A program made the translations under genes and the position numbers. Below, one piece after another: positions 1 to 8,455 of a DNA stretch of 29,052 nt. The notes beneath the pieces were generated by a model. The model did not search any database, was not told where the DNA came from, and saw only the letters and a list, made by a program, of their open reading frames with translations. This stretch comes from Nanobdellota archaeon (GTDB lineage Archaea > Nanobdellota > Nanobdellia > Pacearchaeales > GW2011-AR1), in the NCBI GenBank assembly GCA_038043645.1, contig JBBTBN010000025.1, forward strand, positions 1 to 29,052, read 5' to 3'. Each line of letters starts with the position of its first letter. Position 1 is the first letter of the stretch.

Positions 1-52
1 AAGTGAGGATTTGACGCATCAGCGTCAAACCTTTAGGGTGTGGAGGATGTCA
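1..52 (+). mobile_element. Probable right end of an IS200/IS605-family (TnpB-type) element, rest outside the window
   Basis: GC-rich segment in AT-rich DNA; perfect hairpin TTTGACGC-ATCA-GCGTCAAA (10-29) followed by CCTTTAGGGTGTGGAGGATGTCA, resembling the hairpin+GAGGATGTCA ends of IS605/IS1341-type elements; supplies the premature stop of the radical SAM ORF. No transposase visible. Confidence 0.6.
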
Positions 53-758
53 TTTCATTTCTAATCTCTTTTTCAAAGAAGCATAAAGGAGTGGGCGTTA
101 CTAAATTTATTTTTTTATTATTTTCTTGGGCATATAAATATATTTTTTTAAAATATTTTGAAGCTTCATAAGGATTTAATAAATCTTTATTCTCGTTATT
201 TAAACATGGTCCACAAAGATTAAAGCTTATTGTATTAAGAGGTAAAGAAATTAATGAATTTAATATCTTTTCTAAATCATTACAATTTTCTTTTGAAATA
301 ACTGTATTTGAAGAGACTTTTATCCCTATTTCATTTGCAATTTTAATTCCATTTATGCTCTCTAAATAGCTTCCAGGAATATTAGTTATTTTATCGTGAC
401 TCTTTGAATCGTATCCTTCTATAGATACAGTTAAATAAGATACTTCTTTTTCTAATAAAGATCTTGAAAACTCTTTATTAGATAGAATTCTTCCATTTGT
501 AACTAATCCTGTTTTAATTCCTCTTTTTTTATGTTCAAATAATACTTCATCTAAATAAGGATAAATTGTTGGTTCTCCGCCAATTAAAATTGTTCTTTTA
601 ATATTCAAATTATCTAATAAATCTAAAATAGGTATAATTTTATTTTTTTCAAGAATTTTCTTCTCTTTAAGAGTATTTGAAGAAGAATAGCACCAGCTAC
701 ATTTATTATTACAATTATATGTAAGTGCAAGCCAGACTACATTAAATGTATTTATCAT
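33..758 (-). pseudogene. Radical SAM protein (peptide-maturase-like), apparently C-terminally truncated
   Basis: CxxxCxxC motif (CNNKCSWC), GGEPT motif, TNG and SIEG motifs of the partial TIM barrel; only 241 aa, no SPASM/Twitch cysteines, last residues TSSTP* are read from the putative IS end. Confidence 0.8.
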
Positions 759-773
759 AAGTTTTCAAGAATA

Positions 774-968
774 TTAATCAGAATCTGATCCTTCATTACA
801 GTCAGTACAGTAGCAATCACTAGGACAATCTGTACAATTACAATTGTCATTGCAATCACTATTGTTCTCTTGATAACTTGTAGATTTTGGAGTATATCTT
901 TCTTGAGAGGATAAATTTCCTCCATTTAGATTGATACATCCTGCAATATCTAACAATGTTTTAACCAT
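774..968 (-). CDS. Cys-rich small peptide, candidate RiPP precursor
   Basis: 64 aa; C-terminal core DCNDNCNCTDCPSDCYCTDCNE with 7 Cys and two CxCTDC units; ends 15 nt upstream of the radical SAM start on the same strand. Confidence 0.75.
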   Translation of the reverse strand: MVKTLLDIAGCINLNGGNLSSQERYTPKSTSYQENNSDCNDNCNCTDCPSDCYCTDCNEGSDSD

Positions 969-1181
969 ATTCTCTTTAAGTATTCGCTCTTTTTAAATCC
1001 CTCGAAATTTGACTATAAATTTTTACTACAAGGCAGGGTTACAATTTGTTTTCTTTTTTGGATATAAACCTTTGAATAAAAATCTTCAAATAAAAATCTT
1101 TAAATACCTGCTTTTTCTCTTTTATTAAAATATAGATTAAGGCAACTTTTTCTATATAGTATTATAAAGAGGATATCAACA

Positions 1182-1385
1182 ATGGGAAATTTTGACAGAA
1201 GCGGTTTCAGAGGCGGTGGCAGAGATAGCAGAGGACCTAGAAGAAGTTTTGACGGGCCAAGAGAAATGCATAAAGCAACTTGTTCTGAATGCAAGAAAGA
1301 ATGCGAAGTTCCATTCAAACCAACAGAAGGAAAGCCGGTTTTTTGCAGAGATTGTTATAACAAAAAAAGTCCGAGAAGATTTTAG
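1182..1385 (+). CDS. CxxC-x17-CxxC zinc-ribbon protein with Gly/Arg-rich N-terminus
   Basis: CSEC-x17-CRDC with EVPFKP..GKPVFC motif and RGG-like N-terminus, typical of this small family common in CPR/DPANN genomes. Confidence 0.85.
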   Translation: MGNFDRSGFRGGGRDSRGPRRSFDGPREMHKATCSECKKECEVPFKPTEGKPVFCRDCYNKKSPRRF

Positions 1386-1404
1386 TTAACAATTAAGACA
1401 AAAC

Positions 1405-1446
1405 ATTTTTTATTTTATTTTTTTAATATTTTAATTTATATTTTTC
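1405..1446 (+). terminator. Oligo-T tracts, likely archaeal terminator of the zinc-ribbon gene
   Basis: Several runs of 5-8 T beginning ~20 nt after the stop at 1385. Confidence 0.4.
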
Positions 1447-1621
1447 TGCTTTCGCAGAATTTATTTGCTTCGCATCAGATTTTATCAAGGCGATTCGCTA
1501 AGAAAAATTTTGCTGCAATAACAATTTTGAGGTGAGTGGTTAATCTATTCACTCAATTTTTTATCCTCTGCAAACAGGGGAGTGTATTTTTTATTAAACT
1601 AATTTTTCCTCACTTTTCTCT

Positions 1622-1692
1622 TCTTTAAAACAAATATTTTTATATTCGCACCAGTTGCATAACATTGACTTATTTCTTGGAAATTCTTTTGT
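1622..1692. repeat. 71-bp direct repeat, copy 1 (orphan 3' end of the PD-(D/E)XK nuclease gene)
   Basis: Identical to 2914-2984; on the minus strand reads TKEFPRNKSMLCNWCEYKNICFKE followed by a different tail EKSEEKLV*. Confidence 0.95.
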
Positions 1693-1715
1693 TATTCTTT
1701 AACTAAATAGTAAGA

Positions 1716-1743
1716 TTTATATACTTATAGTTAATCATTAACT
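1716..1743 (+). promoter_or_regulatory. TATA box plus palindromic operator of the HEPN-MNT operon
   Basis: TTTATATA at 1716, 29 nt before ATG 1745; perfect inverted repeat AGTTAAT-C-ATTAACT at 1729-1743. Confidence 0.6.
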
Positions 1744-1744
1744 T

Positions 1745-2110
1745 ATGGATAATTTGATTTTGAAGGCTAAAGATTATTTTATTATTGCGAGAATGTCTGA
1801 AATTCTTGCAAAATATGATGTTGCATGTTCTAATTATTTTAAGTCGTTATCTGCTATTAATGATTATATTTTATCTAAAAAAAGTCTCTTTCCAAAAGAC
1901 CATAATGAACGATTTTTAATGTTAAAAGAGAATGAATCTCTTTTGTATAAAATAACTTCTTCATTATTTTTAACTTATAGAAGAGCTTATACTAAAGAGA
2001 TAACTAAAGAAGAAATTAAACTTCTAAAAGAAAAAATAAAGGAGGCATTTAAACATGCAGGCATTGAATACCCGACAGATTCAGAAATTGAGAAATATTT
2101 TAAAAAATAA
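1745..2110 (+). CDS. HEPN-like helical protein (partner of MNT)
   Basis: 121 aa, NYFKSL...DHNERF...YRRAY pattern typical of archaeal HEPN-type proteins; overlaps a nucleotidyltransferase ORF. Confidence 0.6.
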   Translation: MDNLILKAKDYFIIARMSEILAKYDVACSNYFKSLSAINDYILSKKSLFPKDHNERFLMLKENESLLYKITSSLFLTYRRAYTKEITKEEIKLLKEKIKEAFKHAGIEYPTDSEIEKYFKK

Positions 2111-2621
2111 AATAAAAAAGAATGTTATAGATATTTTTATTATTGGTTCTGCGCTTAAAAATAAACTTTATCCAAATGATTTAGATATCTTGGTTTTGTT
2201 TAGAGAAAAAAATTTGAAAGAAGTTGAAGAAATACTTTTTGAGATTAAAGAAAACATCAATAAGAGAGATGTCCATATTGAACCCCTTTTTGCAGATAAT
2301 CTTTTTGAAGAAAAAATAACTCTTACTATTTTTCACGAGGGTTTTAGCATTAAAAAAAATAAATTTATTTCAGAATTAATCAAATTAAATTCCTTTTCTA
2401 TTTTTTCTTTTAATTTGGAGAATCTTTCTAAAATAGATAAAGTTAGATTTGCGCAGGCGCTTTACGGCAGAAAAAAAGATGGTTTACTTTACATGGAAAA
2501 GGGAATTGTTTTAGGACAAGGAAGTTTTATGGTTAATGTTCAAAAAGAGGAGATATTTAAGGATTTTATGAAAAAGTGGAAGATTAAATACTTCAAGAAA
2601 AAAGCGTTTGTTAATGATTAA
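2055..2621 (+). CDS. Minimal nucleotidyltransferase (MNT, Pol-beta superfamily) with C-terminal extension
   Basis: IFIIGSAL...NDLDILV (GS + DxD) motif; true start may lie slightly downstream. Confidence 0.8.
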   Translation: MQALNTRQIQKLRNILKNKIKKNVIDIFIIGSALKNKLYPNDLDILVLFREKNLKEVEEILFEIKENINKRDVHIEPLFADNLFEEKITLTIFHEGFSIKKNKFISELIKLNSFSIFSFNLENLSKIDKVRFAQALYGRKKDGLLYMEKGIVLGQGSFMVNVQKEEIFKDFMKKWKIKYFKKKAFVND

Positions 2622-2661
2622 CAACATAGATATAAAATTTAAAAAATGGTTAACTATTAAA

Positions 2662-2859
2662 ATGATAATTAATATAAAATCAATTAAGAACGAATTCAAA
2701 AAAAGGAAAATTAGAATTGGAAAAAGTGTTCTTAATTTAATTATAAAGAATATTGAAAATAAGATAATTTTTGAAGTTGAAGAGATAATCAGAAATGCGA
2801 GGCTTGTTGGAAGAAAAACAATTAAGAAAAAAGATATTGAAAAACCCGAAAGTTATTAA
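2662..2859 (+). CDS. Archaeal histone-fold protein (divergent), 65 aa
   Basis: From Met at 2662: ...KIRIGKSVL...RNARLVGRKTIKKKDIE matches the HMf-type RV...A(R)xxGRKT(I/V)KxxD signature; the ORF-track start at 2608 is probably too long. Confidence 0.75.
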   Translation: MIINIKSIKNEFKKRKIRIGKSVLNLIIKNIENKIIFEVEEIIRNARLVGRKTIKKKDIEKPESY

Positions 2860-2879
2860 AATCTCTTCAAAAATATTAT

Positions 2880-3668
2880 TTAGAGAACTCTTTTTTCCTT
2901 CTCCTCTCCCTCCTCTTTAAAACAAATATTTTTATATTCGCACCAGTTGCATAACATTGACTTATTTCTTGGAAATTCTTTTGTGGATTCTACTTTTTTA
3001 ATTAATTCAATGGTTTCTTTTTTTAAATTTTCAAGTTGTGAATTTGTTCTTTTTGATTTCATTATTTTATTATGCGCCAAAAAATGCCATACTAAAAGAA
3101 TTTCTCTTTCATTGCCGTAAATTTCTTTTATAGCAATAGAATATAACGCTAACTGCCTTTCTTGGTCTAAGTGTTCTTGTTTTGGCAGAAGATTTCCTGT
3201 TTTATAGTCGTGAATTTCATATTCTCCTGTTTCTAAATTATAAACAAGTCTGTCAATAAATCCCTGAATTTTGTATTCTCCTTCTTCCAGTTCTATTAGT
3301 ATTCCTTTTTCGCATGCAATTGTTCCGTCTTTAAATGGAGAGTGTTTAGAATAATAATCTACTAAAAATTGTATTCCTTTATTAAAATAATCTCTTGCAG
3401 TAAATTGTTTTTTTACTATCAGAATATTTTCAGAAAATTCTTTTTGCCATTCTTCTGTATATTGGATAATTATATCGTCTATTTTTGGGTCTTTGTTCAT
3501 TTCTTTTACGCTCTTATAAATCCATTCTAAAGTTTTATGCACTGCGCTTCCTAAATGCGTTTCAATTGTTTTTTCTATTTCAGGTTTTAGTTTATCAAGA
3601 TATTTGTATTTGAATTTTTTAGGACATTGTTCAAATGTGGACAAACGCGAATGAGAATAGATTGTCAT
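2880..3668 (-). CDS. PD-(D/E)XK nuclease, RecB/Cas4-like with Fe-S cluster
   Basis: S(H)SRL..FEQCP N-terminal Cys, GFIDRL, HDYKTG, QLALY motifs and C-terminal CxxCxxxxxC. Confidence 0.88.
   Translation of the reverse strand: MTIYSHSRLSTFEQCPKKFKYKYLDKLKPEIEKTIETHLGSAVHKTLEWIYKSVKEMNKDPKIDDIIIQYTEEWQKEFSENILIVKKQFTARDYFNKGIQFLVDYYSKHSPFKDGTIACEKGILIELEEGEYKIQGFIDRLVYNLETGEYEIHDYKTGNLLPKQEHLDQERQLALYSIAIKEIYGNEREILLVWHFLAHNKIMKSKRTNSQLENLKKETIELIKKVESTKEFPRNKSMLCNWCEYKNICFKEEGEEKEKRVL
2914..2984. repeat. 71-bp direct repeat, copy 2 (within the nuclease gene)
   Basis: Identical to 1622-1692. Confidence 0.95.
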
Positions 3669-3746
3669 ATAGAGAGAGAAAGAAGAATGGTTATAAAGGT
3701 TGTTGAGATGATTTTCTGACGAGGATTGTTTTAATTATATATTTTT

Positions 3747-4952
3747 TTATACAATTTCCCCAAAACCAATTAATCTCCAATGACTTTTTAAATTTCTTGC
3801 AATTCCGACATTGTTTCCTTTTAGCGCAACTATTGGAATGTTTAAAGATAATTCTATTTCACTTGTCCCATTTAATGGATCGTTTTTGATTTTTTCAACA
3901 ATGCCGACGGTGATTGTCGTGTTGACACTTAGCATAAGCATTTCTTTTGTTTTTATTGGTTCAACAGGTTTTTTGTCTTCTGCTCCTAAAACCTCTTTGA
4001 ATAATTTTGTTTTTATTTTTACACTATGGGTTATTTCTGGGAGTTTTCCTTTAAGAGAAACAAGGCATCCTGTTAGTGAATCAGATTTTGTTAAGATTGG
4101 ATCAAGAGCTGTTTCAATGGAAATGCTTGCTCCTGGAGTTACTTGATTAATTGATTGGTTTCCTTTATATAAATAAACAATCTTTGTTGTCAGAGTTTGA
4201 TATATTTTGTCGTGGGCTTTTTTAATAATCAGCCCAGGCTTGATTTCAATTTCATCTCCAATTTTTAATTTTCCTTGTTTTAATATTCCTCCAAGAACTC
4301 CTCCTTTTAATTTTTCAATTATTGTTCCAGGTTTGTTTATATCAAAACTTCTTGCAACTAAAAATATTGGTTCGGATTTTTCATCTCTTTCAGGAATTTT
4401 TATTTTGTAAAGTTCTTCAAAAATTTTATCAATGTTAATTCCCTGTTGCGCTGAAATTGGAATAATCGTTGCGTTTTCAGCAATAGTTCCTTTGATAAAT
4501 TGTTTGATTTCTTTATAACTTTCCAGCGCTTTTTCTTTTGAGACCAAATCTATTTTATTTTGAATAACAATTATATTTTTTATTTTTTTTGCTTCTAACG
4601 CAAGCAGATGTTCGCTGGTTTGGGGTTTTATTCCTTCATTTGCGGCAATAACAAGAATTGCAGCGTCAATAATTGCAGCACCTGAAAGCATTGTAGCCAT
4701 TAGCATTTCATGTCCGGGATTGTCAATAAAACTTACATATCTTACGGGCTTTCCTTTTGTATTATTATATTTCCCATTTTCTTCGTAGATTGTAGTGTCA
4801 GCATAACCGAGCTTGATTGTGATTCCTCTTTTTAATTCTTCAGAATGCGTGTCTGTAAATTTTCCAGTTAGTTTGCTTAGCAGAGTTGTTTTTCCGTGGT
4901 CTATATGTCCAACAACTCCGACATTTATTTCCGGGAGATTTTTATCATCCAT
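3747..4952 (-). CDS. eif2g: Translation initiation factor 2 subunit gamma (aIF2-gamma)
   Basis: GHIDHGKTT, HSEELKRGITIKLGY, DxPGHE, NKID, C-terminal RLIGFG. Confidence 0.96.
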   Translation of the reverse strand: MDDKNLPEINVGVVGHIDHGKTTLLSKLTGKFTDTHSEELKRGITIKLGYADTTIYEENGKYNNTKGKPVRYVSFIDNPGHEMLMATMLSGAAIIDAAILVIAANEGIKPQTSEHLLALEAKKIKNIIVIQNKIDLVSKEKALESYKEIKQFIKGTIAENATIIPISAQQGINIDKIFEELYKIKIPERDEKSEPIFLVARSFDINKPGTIIEKLKGGVLGGILKQGKLKIGDEIEIKPGLIIKKAHDKIYQTLTTKIVYLYKGNQSINQVTPGASISIETALDPILTKSDSLTGCLVSLKGKLPEITHSVKIKTKLFKEVLGAEDKKPVEPIKTKEMLMLSVNTTITVGIVEKIKNDPLNGTSEIELSLNIPIVALKGNNVGIARNLKSHWRLIGFGEIV

Positions 4953-6028: not shown

Positions 6029-8455
6029 ATGGGTTTTTGGATTAATAATTTTGCAGAATTTGAAAGAAAACAAACGCGGAAAAACCGCTTAATTTTAAAT
6101 TTTTCATATATTTCTAATTCTTCAAAACAAAAAAATGTTAAGGTTTTCGTTGAGCAAAGTGTAAAAGTTCCAACAAAATTTATTAATCAAAATACTAGCA
6201 AAGAAATTCTTAGTTCTTTTGCAGGAAAAAATAATTTTGAAGATTTAACTATTCACAAAAAGTCAAGAGGAAAATTTGATGTCTTAAGCATAGAGGTTCC
6301 AAATGATAGAGATCTTTTAAACAAACTTTCTAATTATTTTCAGATAGGAAATTATGACAAATTGTTAAGATTTGGAGGATTTTATCCAGAAAGAAAAGTT
6401 ATTCTTAATAGTAAACTTGAAAAATTGTTTAAGGAAAATAAAGAATTGGAATTAAAAAATTTATCTGGAATAAATTTTGGAGAGATTTTGTCTGAAAAAG
6501 AACTTAACACTCTTCCTTATGTAATTCTTGATATAGAGAAACCATTATGGAAAAAAGATTTTGAAAAAAGAGAAATTAGATGGAGAGAGAATATATTAAA
6601 AGCTGAAAAAAAATATTTTAAACTTCCTGAAATAGAACAAGAAAAGCAAAAACCGATTCACGAAAAGAGGAAGAGAATTATAAAAAATTTAGAAGAGAAA
6701 TTAACTATTGAAGTTGAAGAAGTTGGAAAAGTTAAGTTGTATGATGAAAATTTTAGTTCTGAAGTTTCTTATGTTGGGACAATCTGGGGAAAAGGAAAAA
6801 AGAAGAAAAAGGAAATGTATGTTATTGATTCAAATGACGAAATTGTTCGCAAGAGATATAATGGATTTAAAATTCTTAAATTTAAAAGTGAAAAAGAATT
6901 AATTTTAGGATTTTTAGATTCTTTGCACAAGAGAAAACCAATTATTTCTTATGGCCATAATCAGGTTTATGATATAACTCAATTAAGATTTGCAGCAGAA
7001 GAAAATAAACTTATTTATGATCCTGCTGTTAAAGAAATTAAACCTCGACGGGATTTTGTAAGAAGTTTCTTGCAGAGACTTAGAGAAGATATGGTTTATC
7101 TCGATACTTTATGGCTTTCAAAAATTTTTTATCCGTATTTAAATCAAAAGAGATTTGATACCAGCCACAAATTAGCAGATGTTGCGCAATTTTTAGGAAT
7201 AGATTTCTCTAAATCACAAACTCATGAAGAATTAAGATTTACTGAACTTAAGAGATTAGTCGGAGAGACAAAAGAAATTAGAAAAAAAGCTATTGATGAA
7301 ATGTTATTTTATTCTTGCGGGGATTTAGATGTAACGCAAGAAATAGTGAAGAGAATTAATTTTCTGCCTTTAGTTTCAAAAATAAAAAATGTTTTGCCTT
7401 TTTCTACTTTGAGCGAGATTGCTTTTTCAACGAATTGCATGAATAAATTGCATGAGTTTAATTATTTTAAAAAAAATGGAAATCTTCCTTATTATGGATA
7501 TGCGTCAAAAGAAAGGCAGGATAAACTGCAAATCTTTAAAAAAAGATTTACCAGCAAGAAAAAAGAATTGTTAAATTGGGCTGGATTTAAAAAAGCAAAT
7601 TTTGGAGAATATGAAAATGTTAAGGAATTTTATTTGCCGTTAGAAGATTGGACTAAGGACATTGCATTTAAAATAAATCCCGAATTAGAAACAATAGATA
7701 ATGAAACTAAAAATAATAAGTCAGAGCATTTTGCTTTTTTACAATATCTTAAATCTTATATGAAAGAGGTTTTTGCAGATTATTCTTTTGTCAGAAGAGA
7801 TGAAAAAATTTATCAATTTACTAAAAATTTTCTTAGAATTGATAACAATCTTCTTAATGAAAATTTTAATAAAATTAAAAATAGTTTTGGTGAAGAAAAG
7901 CTGAATAAAATTATTGGTTCATTTAGATATTTAAAAAATCATTTTAGGAGCATTTATGTTTCTTTAGAAAGCAAAGACAGGAAAATAATACGGCCTATGA
8001 TTACTCAGGGCAATCTTTTTGAATCATATTATCCAAAAATAATGGAAAATGATGCCGATCTTTTTCTTTTAAGAAATAATTCAGAAATAATTAGAAAAAA
8101 TTTATCTCCTGCGAATGTTAAAAATCTTGATTCTTTTTTAGAAAATTTTGAAACTTTTGAAGGATATTTAAATTCAAGTGTGAATGATCTTTCTAATGCA
8201 AAGGACTTAATTTATTCATATATTTATTTAGATAAATTTTCTTCAGGCAAAAAAAAGTTTTTTAATATTTATGGGGTTGCTGTTAATGAGATAAGTGATA
8301 AAATTACAGGAGGATACAAGAATTTGTTTGAAGAGATGAAACAAAAAAATTTAAATTTTCTTGACCATGTTGGAGATTATATTTTTGTTCAAGGAGATGG
8401 AGATTTAAATTCTGCTATAAAAATAAGAGATTTGGAAAAGTTTGTTGTTTCGTGA
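6029..8455 (+). CDS. PolB-like protein with DEDDy 3'-5' exonuclease domain and degenerate polymerase domain
   Basis: ExoI LDIEK, ExoII GHNQVYD preceded by SEKELILGF, LDTL, HKLADVA..LG, ExoIII YSCGD; no DxxSLYPS or YGDTDS, only HVGDYIFV near the C-terminus. Confidence 0.65.
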   Translation: MGFWINNFAEFERKQTRKNRLILNFSYISNSSKQKNVKVFVEQSVKVPTKFINQNTSKEILSSFAGKNNFEDLTIHKKSRGKFDVLSIEVPNDRDLLNKLSNYFQIGNYDKLLRFGGFYPERKVILNSKLEKLFKENKELELKNLSGINFGEILSEKELNTLPYVILDIEKPLWKKDFEKREIRWRENILKAEKKYFKLPEIEQEKQKPIHEKRKRIIKNLEEKLTIEVEEVGKVKLYDENFSSEVSYVGTIWGKGKKKKKEMYVIDSNDEIVRKRYNGFKILKFKSEKELILGFLDSLHKRKPIISYGHNQVYDITQLRFAAEENKLIYDPAVKEIKPRRDFVRSFLQRLREDMVYLDTLWLSKIFYPYLNQKRFDTSHKLADVAQFLGIDFSKSQTHEELRFTELKRLVGETKEIRKKAIDEMLFYSCGDLDVTQEIVKRINFLPLVSKIKNVLPFSTLSEIAFSTNCMNKLHEFNYFKKNGNLPYYGYASKERQDKLQIFKKRFTSKKKELLNWAGFKKANFGEYENVKEFYLPLEDWTKDIAFKINPELETIDNETKNNKSEHFAFLQYLKSYMKEVFADYSFVRRDEKIYQFTKNFLRIDNNLLNENFNKIKNSFGEEKLNKIIGSFRYLKNHFRSIYVSLESKDRKIIRPMITQGNLFESYYPKIMENDADLFLLRNNSEIIRKNLSPANVKNLDSFLENFETFEGYLNSSVNDLSNAKDLIYSYIYLDKFSSGKKKFFNIYGVAVNEISDKITGGYKNLFEEMKQKNLNFLDHVGDYIFVQGDGDLNSAIKIRDLEKFVVS

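Follow-up and report, generated by a model that had tools for sequence, protein, structure and literature searches.

A duplicated nuclease gene end beside a mobile three-gene cassette in a Nanobdellota archaeon: a probable scar of host recombination

A mobile cassette of three genes, which encode a HEPN-fold protein, a minimal nucleotidyltransferase (MNT) and a histone-fold protein, has been inserted in the archaeon considered here at the point where a gene for a Cas4-like nuclease ends, and the perfect 71-nt direct repeat that now flanks these genes is most likely the scar of host recombination and not a dedicated attachment (att) site. The cassette lies in a stretch of 29,052 nt (the window), which is contig JBBTBN010000025.1 (C25) of assembly GCA_038043645.1. 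The host is a Nanobdellota archaeon from groundwater with a tiny genome, and its assembly (G000) comprises 625 kb in 37 contigs and is 72% complete. An earlier note on this DNA had proposed that the three genes form a minimal, non-autonomous island or a recombinationally swapped cassette that uses the nuclease gene as its att-like site. In what follows G numbers denote the genomes searched, L numbers the loci or contigs compared, P numbers further strains from the comparison of nuclease proteins, and C numbers contigs.

A repeat search of the window aligned positions 1618-1692 with 2910-2984 as a 75-nt direct repeat with a single mismatch (T at 1621, C at 2913). Within it the 71 nt at 1622-1692 (copy 1) and 2914-2984 (copy 2) are identical and are spaced 1292 nt apart. 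There are just two copies of the 71-nt repeat across the 625-kb assembly, and the likelihood that an exact repeat of this length arose by chance in 29 kb is negligible. When read on the minus strand both copies give TKEFPRNKSMLCNWCEYKNICFKE, the cysteine-rich end of the Cas4-like nuclease, and from there each continues into a distinct tail rich in glutamate and lysine. Copy 2 lies inside the working nuclease gene (2880-3668, minus strand). The 262-aa product of this gene belongs to the PD-(D/E)XK nucleases (PF12705, E 9e-34) and also matches Cas4 models, with an E value of 5e-16 in PADLOC and 48.8 bits to TIGR00372, below the cut-off of 65. Its Fe-S cysteines follow the pattern C...CxxCx5C, with one near the N-terminus (C15) and three near the C-terminus (CNWCEYKNIC). 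By these matches the protein is predicted to be Cas4-like and not a Cas4 equivalog, and its orthologues in congeners are 86-87% identical. Copy 1 lies inside an orphan 3' fragment of such a gene (1594-1698, minus strand), which consists of 34 codons, made up of the core and its own tail, and a stop codon. The fragment has no start, and an in-frame stop at 1699-1701 precedes it.

After the common residues ...CFKE, copy 2 continues into EGEEKEKRVL and the stop that ends the intact gene (tail B), and copy 1 into EKSEEKLV and the stop at 1594-1596 (tail A). Tail B (KEEGEEKEKR) resembles the nuclease tails of G001 (KEEMEEKRKD) and P0010 (KEEGEEKKIK), and tail A has the 9-mer AAAAGTGAG in common with G003. 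Both tails therefore look like genuine nuclease tails, that is to say, two alleles of the gene end appear to be present. The tails are about 67% alike. The two cores, in turn, both carry the alleles NKSML, which are found in no relative, the cores of the relatives being 83-92% identical. Since there are two genuine alleles of the gene end, a simple staggered-cut duplication of the target is excluded; tail B is a homologous nuclease tail and not random sequence, and the tails and the DNA downstream of the two copies are unlike. Divergence in situ of a longer duplication was likewise rejected, as no change in 71 nt beside some 33% divergence in the tails is incompatible with a single age. Between the cassette and copy 2 a short stretch (2845-2913) belongs to neither, and holds the end of the histone-fold gene with its stop, a 20-nt spacer, and the nuclease stop with tail B (2880-2913). 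As can be deduced from the sequence, recombination between the repeats would yield a 260-aa nuclease with tail A. The observations on which the earlier note was built, namely two identical copies that encode the nuclease C-terminus and run into different tails, are thus borne out by the repeat search and the translations; its expectation that excision would restore an intact gene with the alternative tail agrees with what the sequence predicts.

Comparison with a related strain indicates that the cassette was inserted in the lineage of the window. In L054, a 942-nt contig from that strain, about 55 nt separate a zinc-finger gene (94% identical to positions 1100-1447) from the nuclease 3' end (90% identical to 2910-3486). 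This contig has no cassette, and its nuclease ends in a tail of a third kind. The adjacency of the two genes represents the unoccupied state of the site, of which the zinc-finger gene is the left neighbour in the window (1182-1385, plus strand; 67 aa, treble-clef type, PF23477, E 3e-18).

The cassette itself is delimited by its homology to six other genomic contexts, with which it shares 73-89% DNA identity, and occupies about 1.15 kb (approximately 1688-2844, plus strand). These contexts were found by exact-protein look-ups and genome searches, and with the window included the cassette is present at no fewer than seven, that is at least seven, unrelated chromosomal positions in Pacearchaeota. 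In a congener (L029 and L031, 89% DNA identity) it stands between a 190-aa gene and a gene of either 436 or 239 aa; in another genus (G086, 73%) it follows the gene for aspartyl-tRNA synthetase (AspRS) and precedes a reverse-transcriptase-like open reading frame (ORF); and in L071 (86%) it follows the gene for seryl-tRNA synthetase. Further copies are found in L070 (86%) and L075 (74%), and that of L082, whose HEPN protein is 89% identical to that of the window, was placed by gene order. A search of 100 genomes of the family with the cassette DNA gave one true match, in G086, the others being short AT-rich noise. In the aligned copies homology sets in with (A/T)TTTGTTA and extends to the stop codon of the third gene. 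The long flanking direct repeat occurs in the window copy only; neither flanking repeats nor duplicated ends of neighbouring genes were found at the cassettes of L029, L031, G086, L070, L071 and L075. A 19-nt A-rich match at L070 and a 14-nt match at L071 were considered as flanking repeats and taken as chance.

Some integrative elements target the 3' ends of tRNA or protein genes and carry a replacement end. The locus in the window is like these elements in that direct repeats flank the insert, the target is kept whole by a second 3' end, and an orphan end is left beyond. It is unlike them in that there is no integrase, the cargo measures 1.2 kb and is found elsewhere without the site, the relatives searched show no further use of the site, and one joint lies on microhomology. 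It could be argued that the 71-nt core is nevertheless a true att site of a non-autonomous element served in trans by XerA or by the serine recombinase on C10, in which case the element would resemble integron cassettes or elements that exploit Xer. Such a view draws on the perfect repeats around a small cargo, by which the target gene is restored, on the precise and conserved ends of the cassette with a palindromic motif exactly at the left one, and on the presence of recombinases elsewhere in G000, but we regard it as rather unlikely on several grounds. The nuclease core and the flanking repeats are missing from all six other contexts of the cassette, none of which has the nuclease beside it. 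A search of 60 relatives with the nuclease protein brought up no second orphan 3' end; the only other partial match (G020:C51, 45% identity over residues 173-249) is part of a 225-aa open frame and, judged from the match alone, looks like a divergent paralogue. No full-length nuclease with tail A is present in the 12-member protein cluster at 90%. Moreover, no sequencing run was found that has the flanks but not the cassette; across five studies, the share of a run's sequence words that belongs to the cassette tracks that of the whole region in every case (for example 0.54 vs 0.61, 0.47 vs 0.51, 0.36 vs 0.38). Exact-pattern scans of metagenome contigs at the Joint Genome Institute (JGI) gave no match for the empty-site junction and none for tail A alone either; as that collection does not show this strain, these negatives carry no weight.

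The search for a recombinase points in the same direction. There is no recombinase gene in the cassette or in the window contig, and profile searches of G000 (PF00589 and PF00239) found only XerA, on C13, and, on C10, a small serine recombinase. The housekeeping enzyme XerA, which scores 231 bits (cut-off 220), is the sole tyrosine recombinase of the assembly and adjoins kae1. In the C10 protein only the catalytic domain resembles the large serine recombinases or TnpA of IS607. G000, which is 72% complete, yielded no Y1 transposase, and the window no tRNA or tmRNA; near the insertion site no Rfam family reached its gathering score. We also observed that the gene directly after that for the 249-aa serine recombinase on C10 encodes 209 aa with an IscB-like HNH region (G000:C10:12310-13690; L081 573-1953), and this pair may be a small mobile element. 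The part of the earlier proposal that stands, therefore, is that of a real mobile insertion that lacks an integrase, as attested by the empty site of L054 and the seven or more contexts of the cassette. Site-specific use of the nuclease gene is not supported, given that in none of the six other contexts does the cassette lie by a nuclease gene or within a duplication and that no other orphan end was found in the 60 relatives searched. The term att-like site overstates the case, and a one-off recombination scar at a variable spot is most likely.

The left joint of the insertion suggests how such a scar might have formed. At 1687-1692 the sequence TTTTGT provides 5-6 nt of microhomology between the nuclease gene, where it is found as CTTTTGT followed by GGATTC (2978-2990), and the left end of the cassette in other contexts, where (A/T)TTTGT is followed by TA. 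Microhomology at this joint speaks for recombination of the illegitimate or homologous kind and against the action of a site-specific recombinase. In the course of events that we favour, DNA from a sister strain would have carried the cassette just downstream of its own tail-B nuclease allele. This donor DNA would have recombined with the resident tail-A locus by means of host recombination, anchored in the conserved gene end that codes for the Fe-S cysteines, and the other end would have been joined at the microhomology TTTTGT. Two routes can be envisaged: in the first the fragment would have formed a circle at TTTTGT and then entered by one crossover, and the second is homology-facilitated illegitimate recombination. 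Neither would need a dedicated integrase or att site, and the duplication would be a by-product that keeps the nuclease gene whole, the repeat being bounded on one side by the microhomology joint and on the other by the point at which the tails of the two alleles cease to match. In homology-facilitated illegitimate or Campbell-type recombination, too, one end is anchored in homology and the other at microhomology, and the anchor can be duplicated; the difference is that here the process would be deduced from one product only. These processes are known from bacterial transformation, and to our knowledge neither has been demonstrated in DPANN archaea.

Several points weigh against insertion by host recombination in this form. 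The donor arrangement, with the cassette by a tail-B nuclease and no duplication, was not found. The cores are identical down to their private alleles and the tails only about two-thirds identical, which requires either gene conversion in addition or, as donor, a very close strain with a tail swapped beforehand. In every context the cassette is bounded by the same tight ends, which random illegitimate events do not obviously give, although selection on a minimal functional unit could be the source of these ends. Finally, the integrated form rests on the resolution of the repeat by the assemblers, with a word length (k) of 55 that is smaller than the 71-nt repeat.

The second of these points raises the possibility that the insertion is older and that the cores have been kept identical by gene conversion, the tracts of which would stop where the tails stop being alike. 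Besides the derived NKSML alleles in both cores beside tails that are only some two-thirds alike, this would agree with the occurrence of the same structure in samples of several studies dated 2019-2025, and with the lack of single nucleotide polymorphisms (SNPs) in either core among strain variants. On the other hand, a tract of 71 nt at a distance of 1.3 kb offers conversion little to act on, loss of the cassette by the same recombination would be just as easy, and no partly converted core is seen in any contig, and we consider this explanation improbable. As gene conversion could keep the cores identical, their identity does not prove the recent event that the earlier note had read from it.

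Insertion of the cassette at the nuclease gene depends on the correct assembly of a repeat that is longer than k, and the earlier note had asked that an artefact be excluded by spanning reads. The true molecules might be an empty site, in which tail A and the core lead into the nuclease gene, together with a 1292-bp circle or a second strain, wrongly threaded through the 71-nt node. It is in keeping with this that the repeat exceeds the apparent k of 55 and that L037, L053 and the Logan unitigs end inside the repeat at positions related to k: L037 starts at 1638, 55 nt inside copy 1, L053 ends at 1676, also 55 nt in, and the Logan unitigs end at 1651, 30 nt in. Ends at 55 and 30 nt are, though, the expected behaviour at a true branch of the assembly graph with k of 55 and 31. 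Against an artefact, L049, an independent contig of 2115 nt, corresponds to window positions 1-2115 and spans tail A, the core and the cassette; with four SNPs it comes from a separate assembly, and it resolves the repeat in the same way as the window contig. L028 and L037 run from the cassette through tail B and the core into the nuclease gene. The collection lists further contigs of up to 61.5 kb with the same proteins, and the contig coverage of flank and cassette is alike at 5-6x. No contig or protein in the collection joins tail A to the body of the gene. Because L049, L037 and other contigs reproduce the structure, the core that adjoins the left end of the cassette is real DNA, and this holds by virtue of L037 whichever way the repeat is threaded. 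An empty site with a free circle in place of an insertion is unlikely in view of the consistent resolution across assemblies, the lack of a full-length tail-A protein and the tracking word shares, and an assembly artefact in general seems to us very improbable. Independent contigs thus reproduce both junctions with even coverage, and what is left of the concern is that the repeat is longer than k. It was also noted that the window contig and L049, which comes from another sample, begin at the same base, at a G+C-rich hairpin, and this fits a repeat that breaks assemblies there.

The insertion site lies in a variable neighbourhood. The earlier note had suggested that syntenic loci be compared, and the DNA just downstream of the nuclease gene indeed proved to be different in every close relative. 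In G002 a 129-aa ORF and then gyrA are found there, in P0004 SpoU, and in P0003 a 635-aa gene. In G003 (L026, G003:C81 2296-5420) the space from gyrA to the nuclease gene is taken up by a restriction-modification set, with genes for an N6/N4 DNA methylase, a DUF4145 protein and a TdeIII-type endonuclease, and in a P0002 strain (L055) LemA, an M48 peptidase and PemK/MazE occupy the same side. On the upstream side the neighbour, eIF2-gamma, is mostly conserved. This variable DNA, often of defence type (TdeIII-type restriction-modification, PemK/MazE and the cassette itself), is reminiscent of the hot spots for defence or variable islands beside core genes. The locus differs from these in that synteny is loose overall in such small genomes and in some strains the DNA varies on either side of the nuclease, and the hot-spot character of the region can be called no more than suggestive. 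As a separate observation, in G001 (L025, G001:C22, 1452-2426) a 324-aa ORF separates the nuclease gene from that for eIF2-gamma, its direct neighbour in the window and in G002.

On the far side of the orphan fragment, between the T-rich tail of the zinc-finger gene and the orphan stop, the window has an extra segment of 146 nt (1448-1593, plus strand) that is richer in G+C and structured (fold z -3.7). It is missing from L054 and unique in G000. A TATA-like TTTATAT (1436-1442) stands before it and an oligo-T run after it, and it has a weak H/ACA-like match in Rfam (E 0.005, below gathering). Its first 60 nt match two loci of G001 at 79-83%. This segment is a candidate for a small RNA gene or, alternatively, for a small repeat element.

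The genes between the repeat copies are those for the HEPN-fold, MNT and histone-fold proteins only, and the names that the earlier note had given them, as well as its remark that no integrase accompanies them, are upheld by structural models, Foldseek, PF01909, profile searches, the gene list and the search for recombinases. The first gene (1745-2110, plus strand) encodes 121 aa. It has no match in Pfam, NCBIfam or PADLOC. The model, built with an alignment of 25 relatives (predicted local distance difference test (pLDDT) 91), finds its best Foldseek matches in the HEPN proteins 2q00, 2hsb, 1o3u, 1wol and 1ufb, with template modelling (TM) scores of 0.63-0.72, and a HEPN fold is accordingly what the model predicts for this protein. 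The RNase motif Rx4-6H is present neither in the protein nor in the 25-member alignment. In the same alignment H53, Y78, R79 and Y82 are invariant and R56 and R80 nearly so. The second gene (2055-2621, plus strand), which overlaps the first by 56 nt, encodes the MNT of 188 aa, which matches PF01909 only slightly above the cut-off of 21 bits (23.8 bits, E 5.8e-5). Its sequence GSALKNKLYPNDLDI has the nucleotidyltransferase signature G[GS]x9-13Dx[DE] in the form GS-x10-DLD, and a C-terminal extension of about 90 aa follows the domain.

The third gene (2662-2859, plus strand) encodes a histone-fold protein of 65 aa with the loop signature GRKTIK, which is invariant in the alignment of its family. 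Profile comparison with PDB gave HmvA (E 2e-4) and HMfB (0.007), and the model (pLDDT 88), with helices at 5-14, 21-48 and 56-59, has TM scores of 0.72-0.78 to 8bdk, 5t5k and 1a7w, which include archaeal and eukaryotic histones. The protein falls below the family thresholds, with no match to Pfam CBFD_NFYB_HMF and 15.9 bits to the NCBIfam model archaea_histone, for which the cut-off is 50. It shares with archaeal histones such as HMfB and the non-canonical HmvA (8bdk) the GRKT loop and the fold of helix, long helix and short helix. In contrast to them, and apart from its scores below the cut-offs, it is the third gene of a mobile HEPN/MNT set and not a stand-alone chromatin gene. Further histone-fold genes are present elsewhere in G000.

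Adjoining and overlapping genes for a HEPN-fold protein and an MNT with GS...DxD recall the type VII toxin-antitoxin system HepT/MntA, structures of which (6m6u, 7ae9) are among the fold matches of the HEPN-fold protein. The cassette differs from that system in having the HEPN gene first, in the lack of Rx4-6H, in the histone-fold gene that is always present as a third component, and in the MNT extension. A further likeness is the patchy and multi-copy distribution of the HEPN-fold family, which is found in 30 of the 201 genomes sampled from the order and in three copies in G000, a pattern typical of toxin-antitoxin or defence genes. The two other sets of HEPN-fold, MNT and histone-fold genes in G000 (C14:7400-8440 and C2:10775-11834, both on the minus strand; L092 and L093) are more diverged, with the gene order and gene overlaps of the window set, and the three HEPN paralogues have H-x-E-R-F and Y-x3-Y in common.

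Two sequence motifs recur in the cassette. TTGTTA-N4-TTAAC marks its left end (1689-1703, plus strand) and has three matches in the window against 0.05 expected. A second occurrence lies 919 nt away, at the MNT stop, in each copy for which the left flank is available, with the exception of the L075 group, which matched at the second site only. In G086 the two sites form a perfect 23-nt direct repeat (L048, 5851 and 6770). The other motif is the perfect palindrome GTTAA-N3-TTAAC, with two matches in the window (1730-1742 and 2610-2622) against 0.03 expected. The first of these follows a TATA-like box (1716-1723, plus strand) and ends 2 nt before the start codon of the HEPN gene, a position at which it is found in every cassette copy (L029, L048, L070, L071, L075, L082). 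The second coincides with the second TTGTTA-N4-TTAAC at 2608-2622 on the plus strand (TTGTTAATGATTAAC), where both overlap the MNT stop upstream of the TATA-like box of the histone-fold gene. In appearance the palindromic sites look like operators and may be regarded as putative ones, and with its TATA-like boxes the cassette would bring promoters of its own. Two side observations concern the G086 locus (L048, G086:C6). The 420-aa ORF after the cassette (7093-8355) has a C-terminal half that appears by eye to be reverse-transcriptase-like and no Pfam match, and a second, larger nucleotidyltransferase gene (3267-4046; 259 aa, PF01909) lies upstream of AspRS.

The insertion itself is an ordinary kind of event, in which a small accessory cassette has come to lie beside a conserved gene and a duplicate of that gene's end is left as the scar. 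Its value lies in providing a clean and polarised example, with empty site, occupied site and the cassette elsewhere, of integrase-less exchange of accessory genes in tiny DPANN genomes. Of greater interest is the cassette, with a histone-fold protein invariably coupled to a HEPN/MNT pair, three paralogous sets in a 625-kb assembly, and operator-like palindromes that are conserved among copies of the window's type. Tentatively, and with more against this proposal than for it at present, the set might constitute a family of Pacearchaeota, so far undescribed, with three components and a toxin-antitoxin-like or defence role, that moves as a precise unit of 1.15 kb. The histone-fold protein might then act as a sequence-specific regulator at the palindromes, or the palindromes might serve as recombination sites for mobility without an integrase. 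If there is such a mobile family, the duplication in the nuclease gene would be one visible footprint of its movement. A recent survey of prokaryotic histone families names no toxin, defence or nucleotidyltransferase partners (PMC11390915). Should the histone-fold protein be a sequence-specific regulator or the partner of a toxin, the known roles of histone folds would widen.

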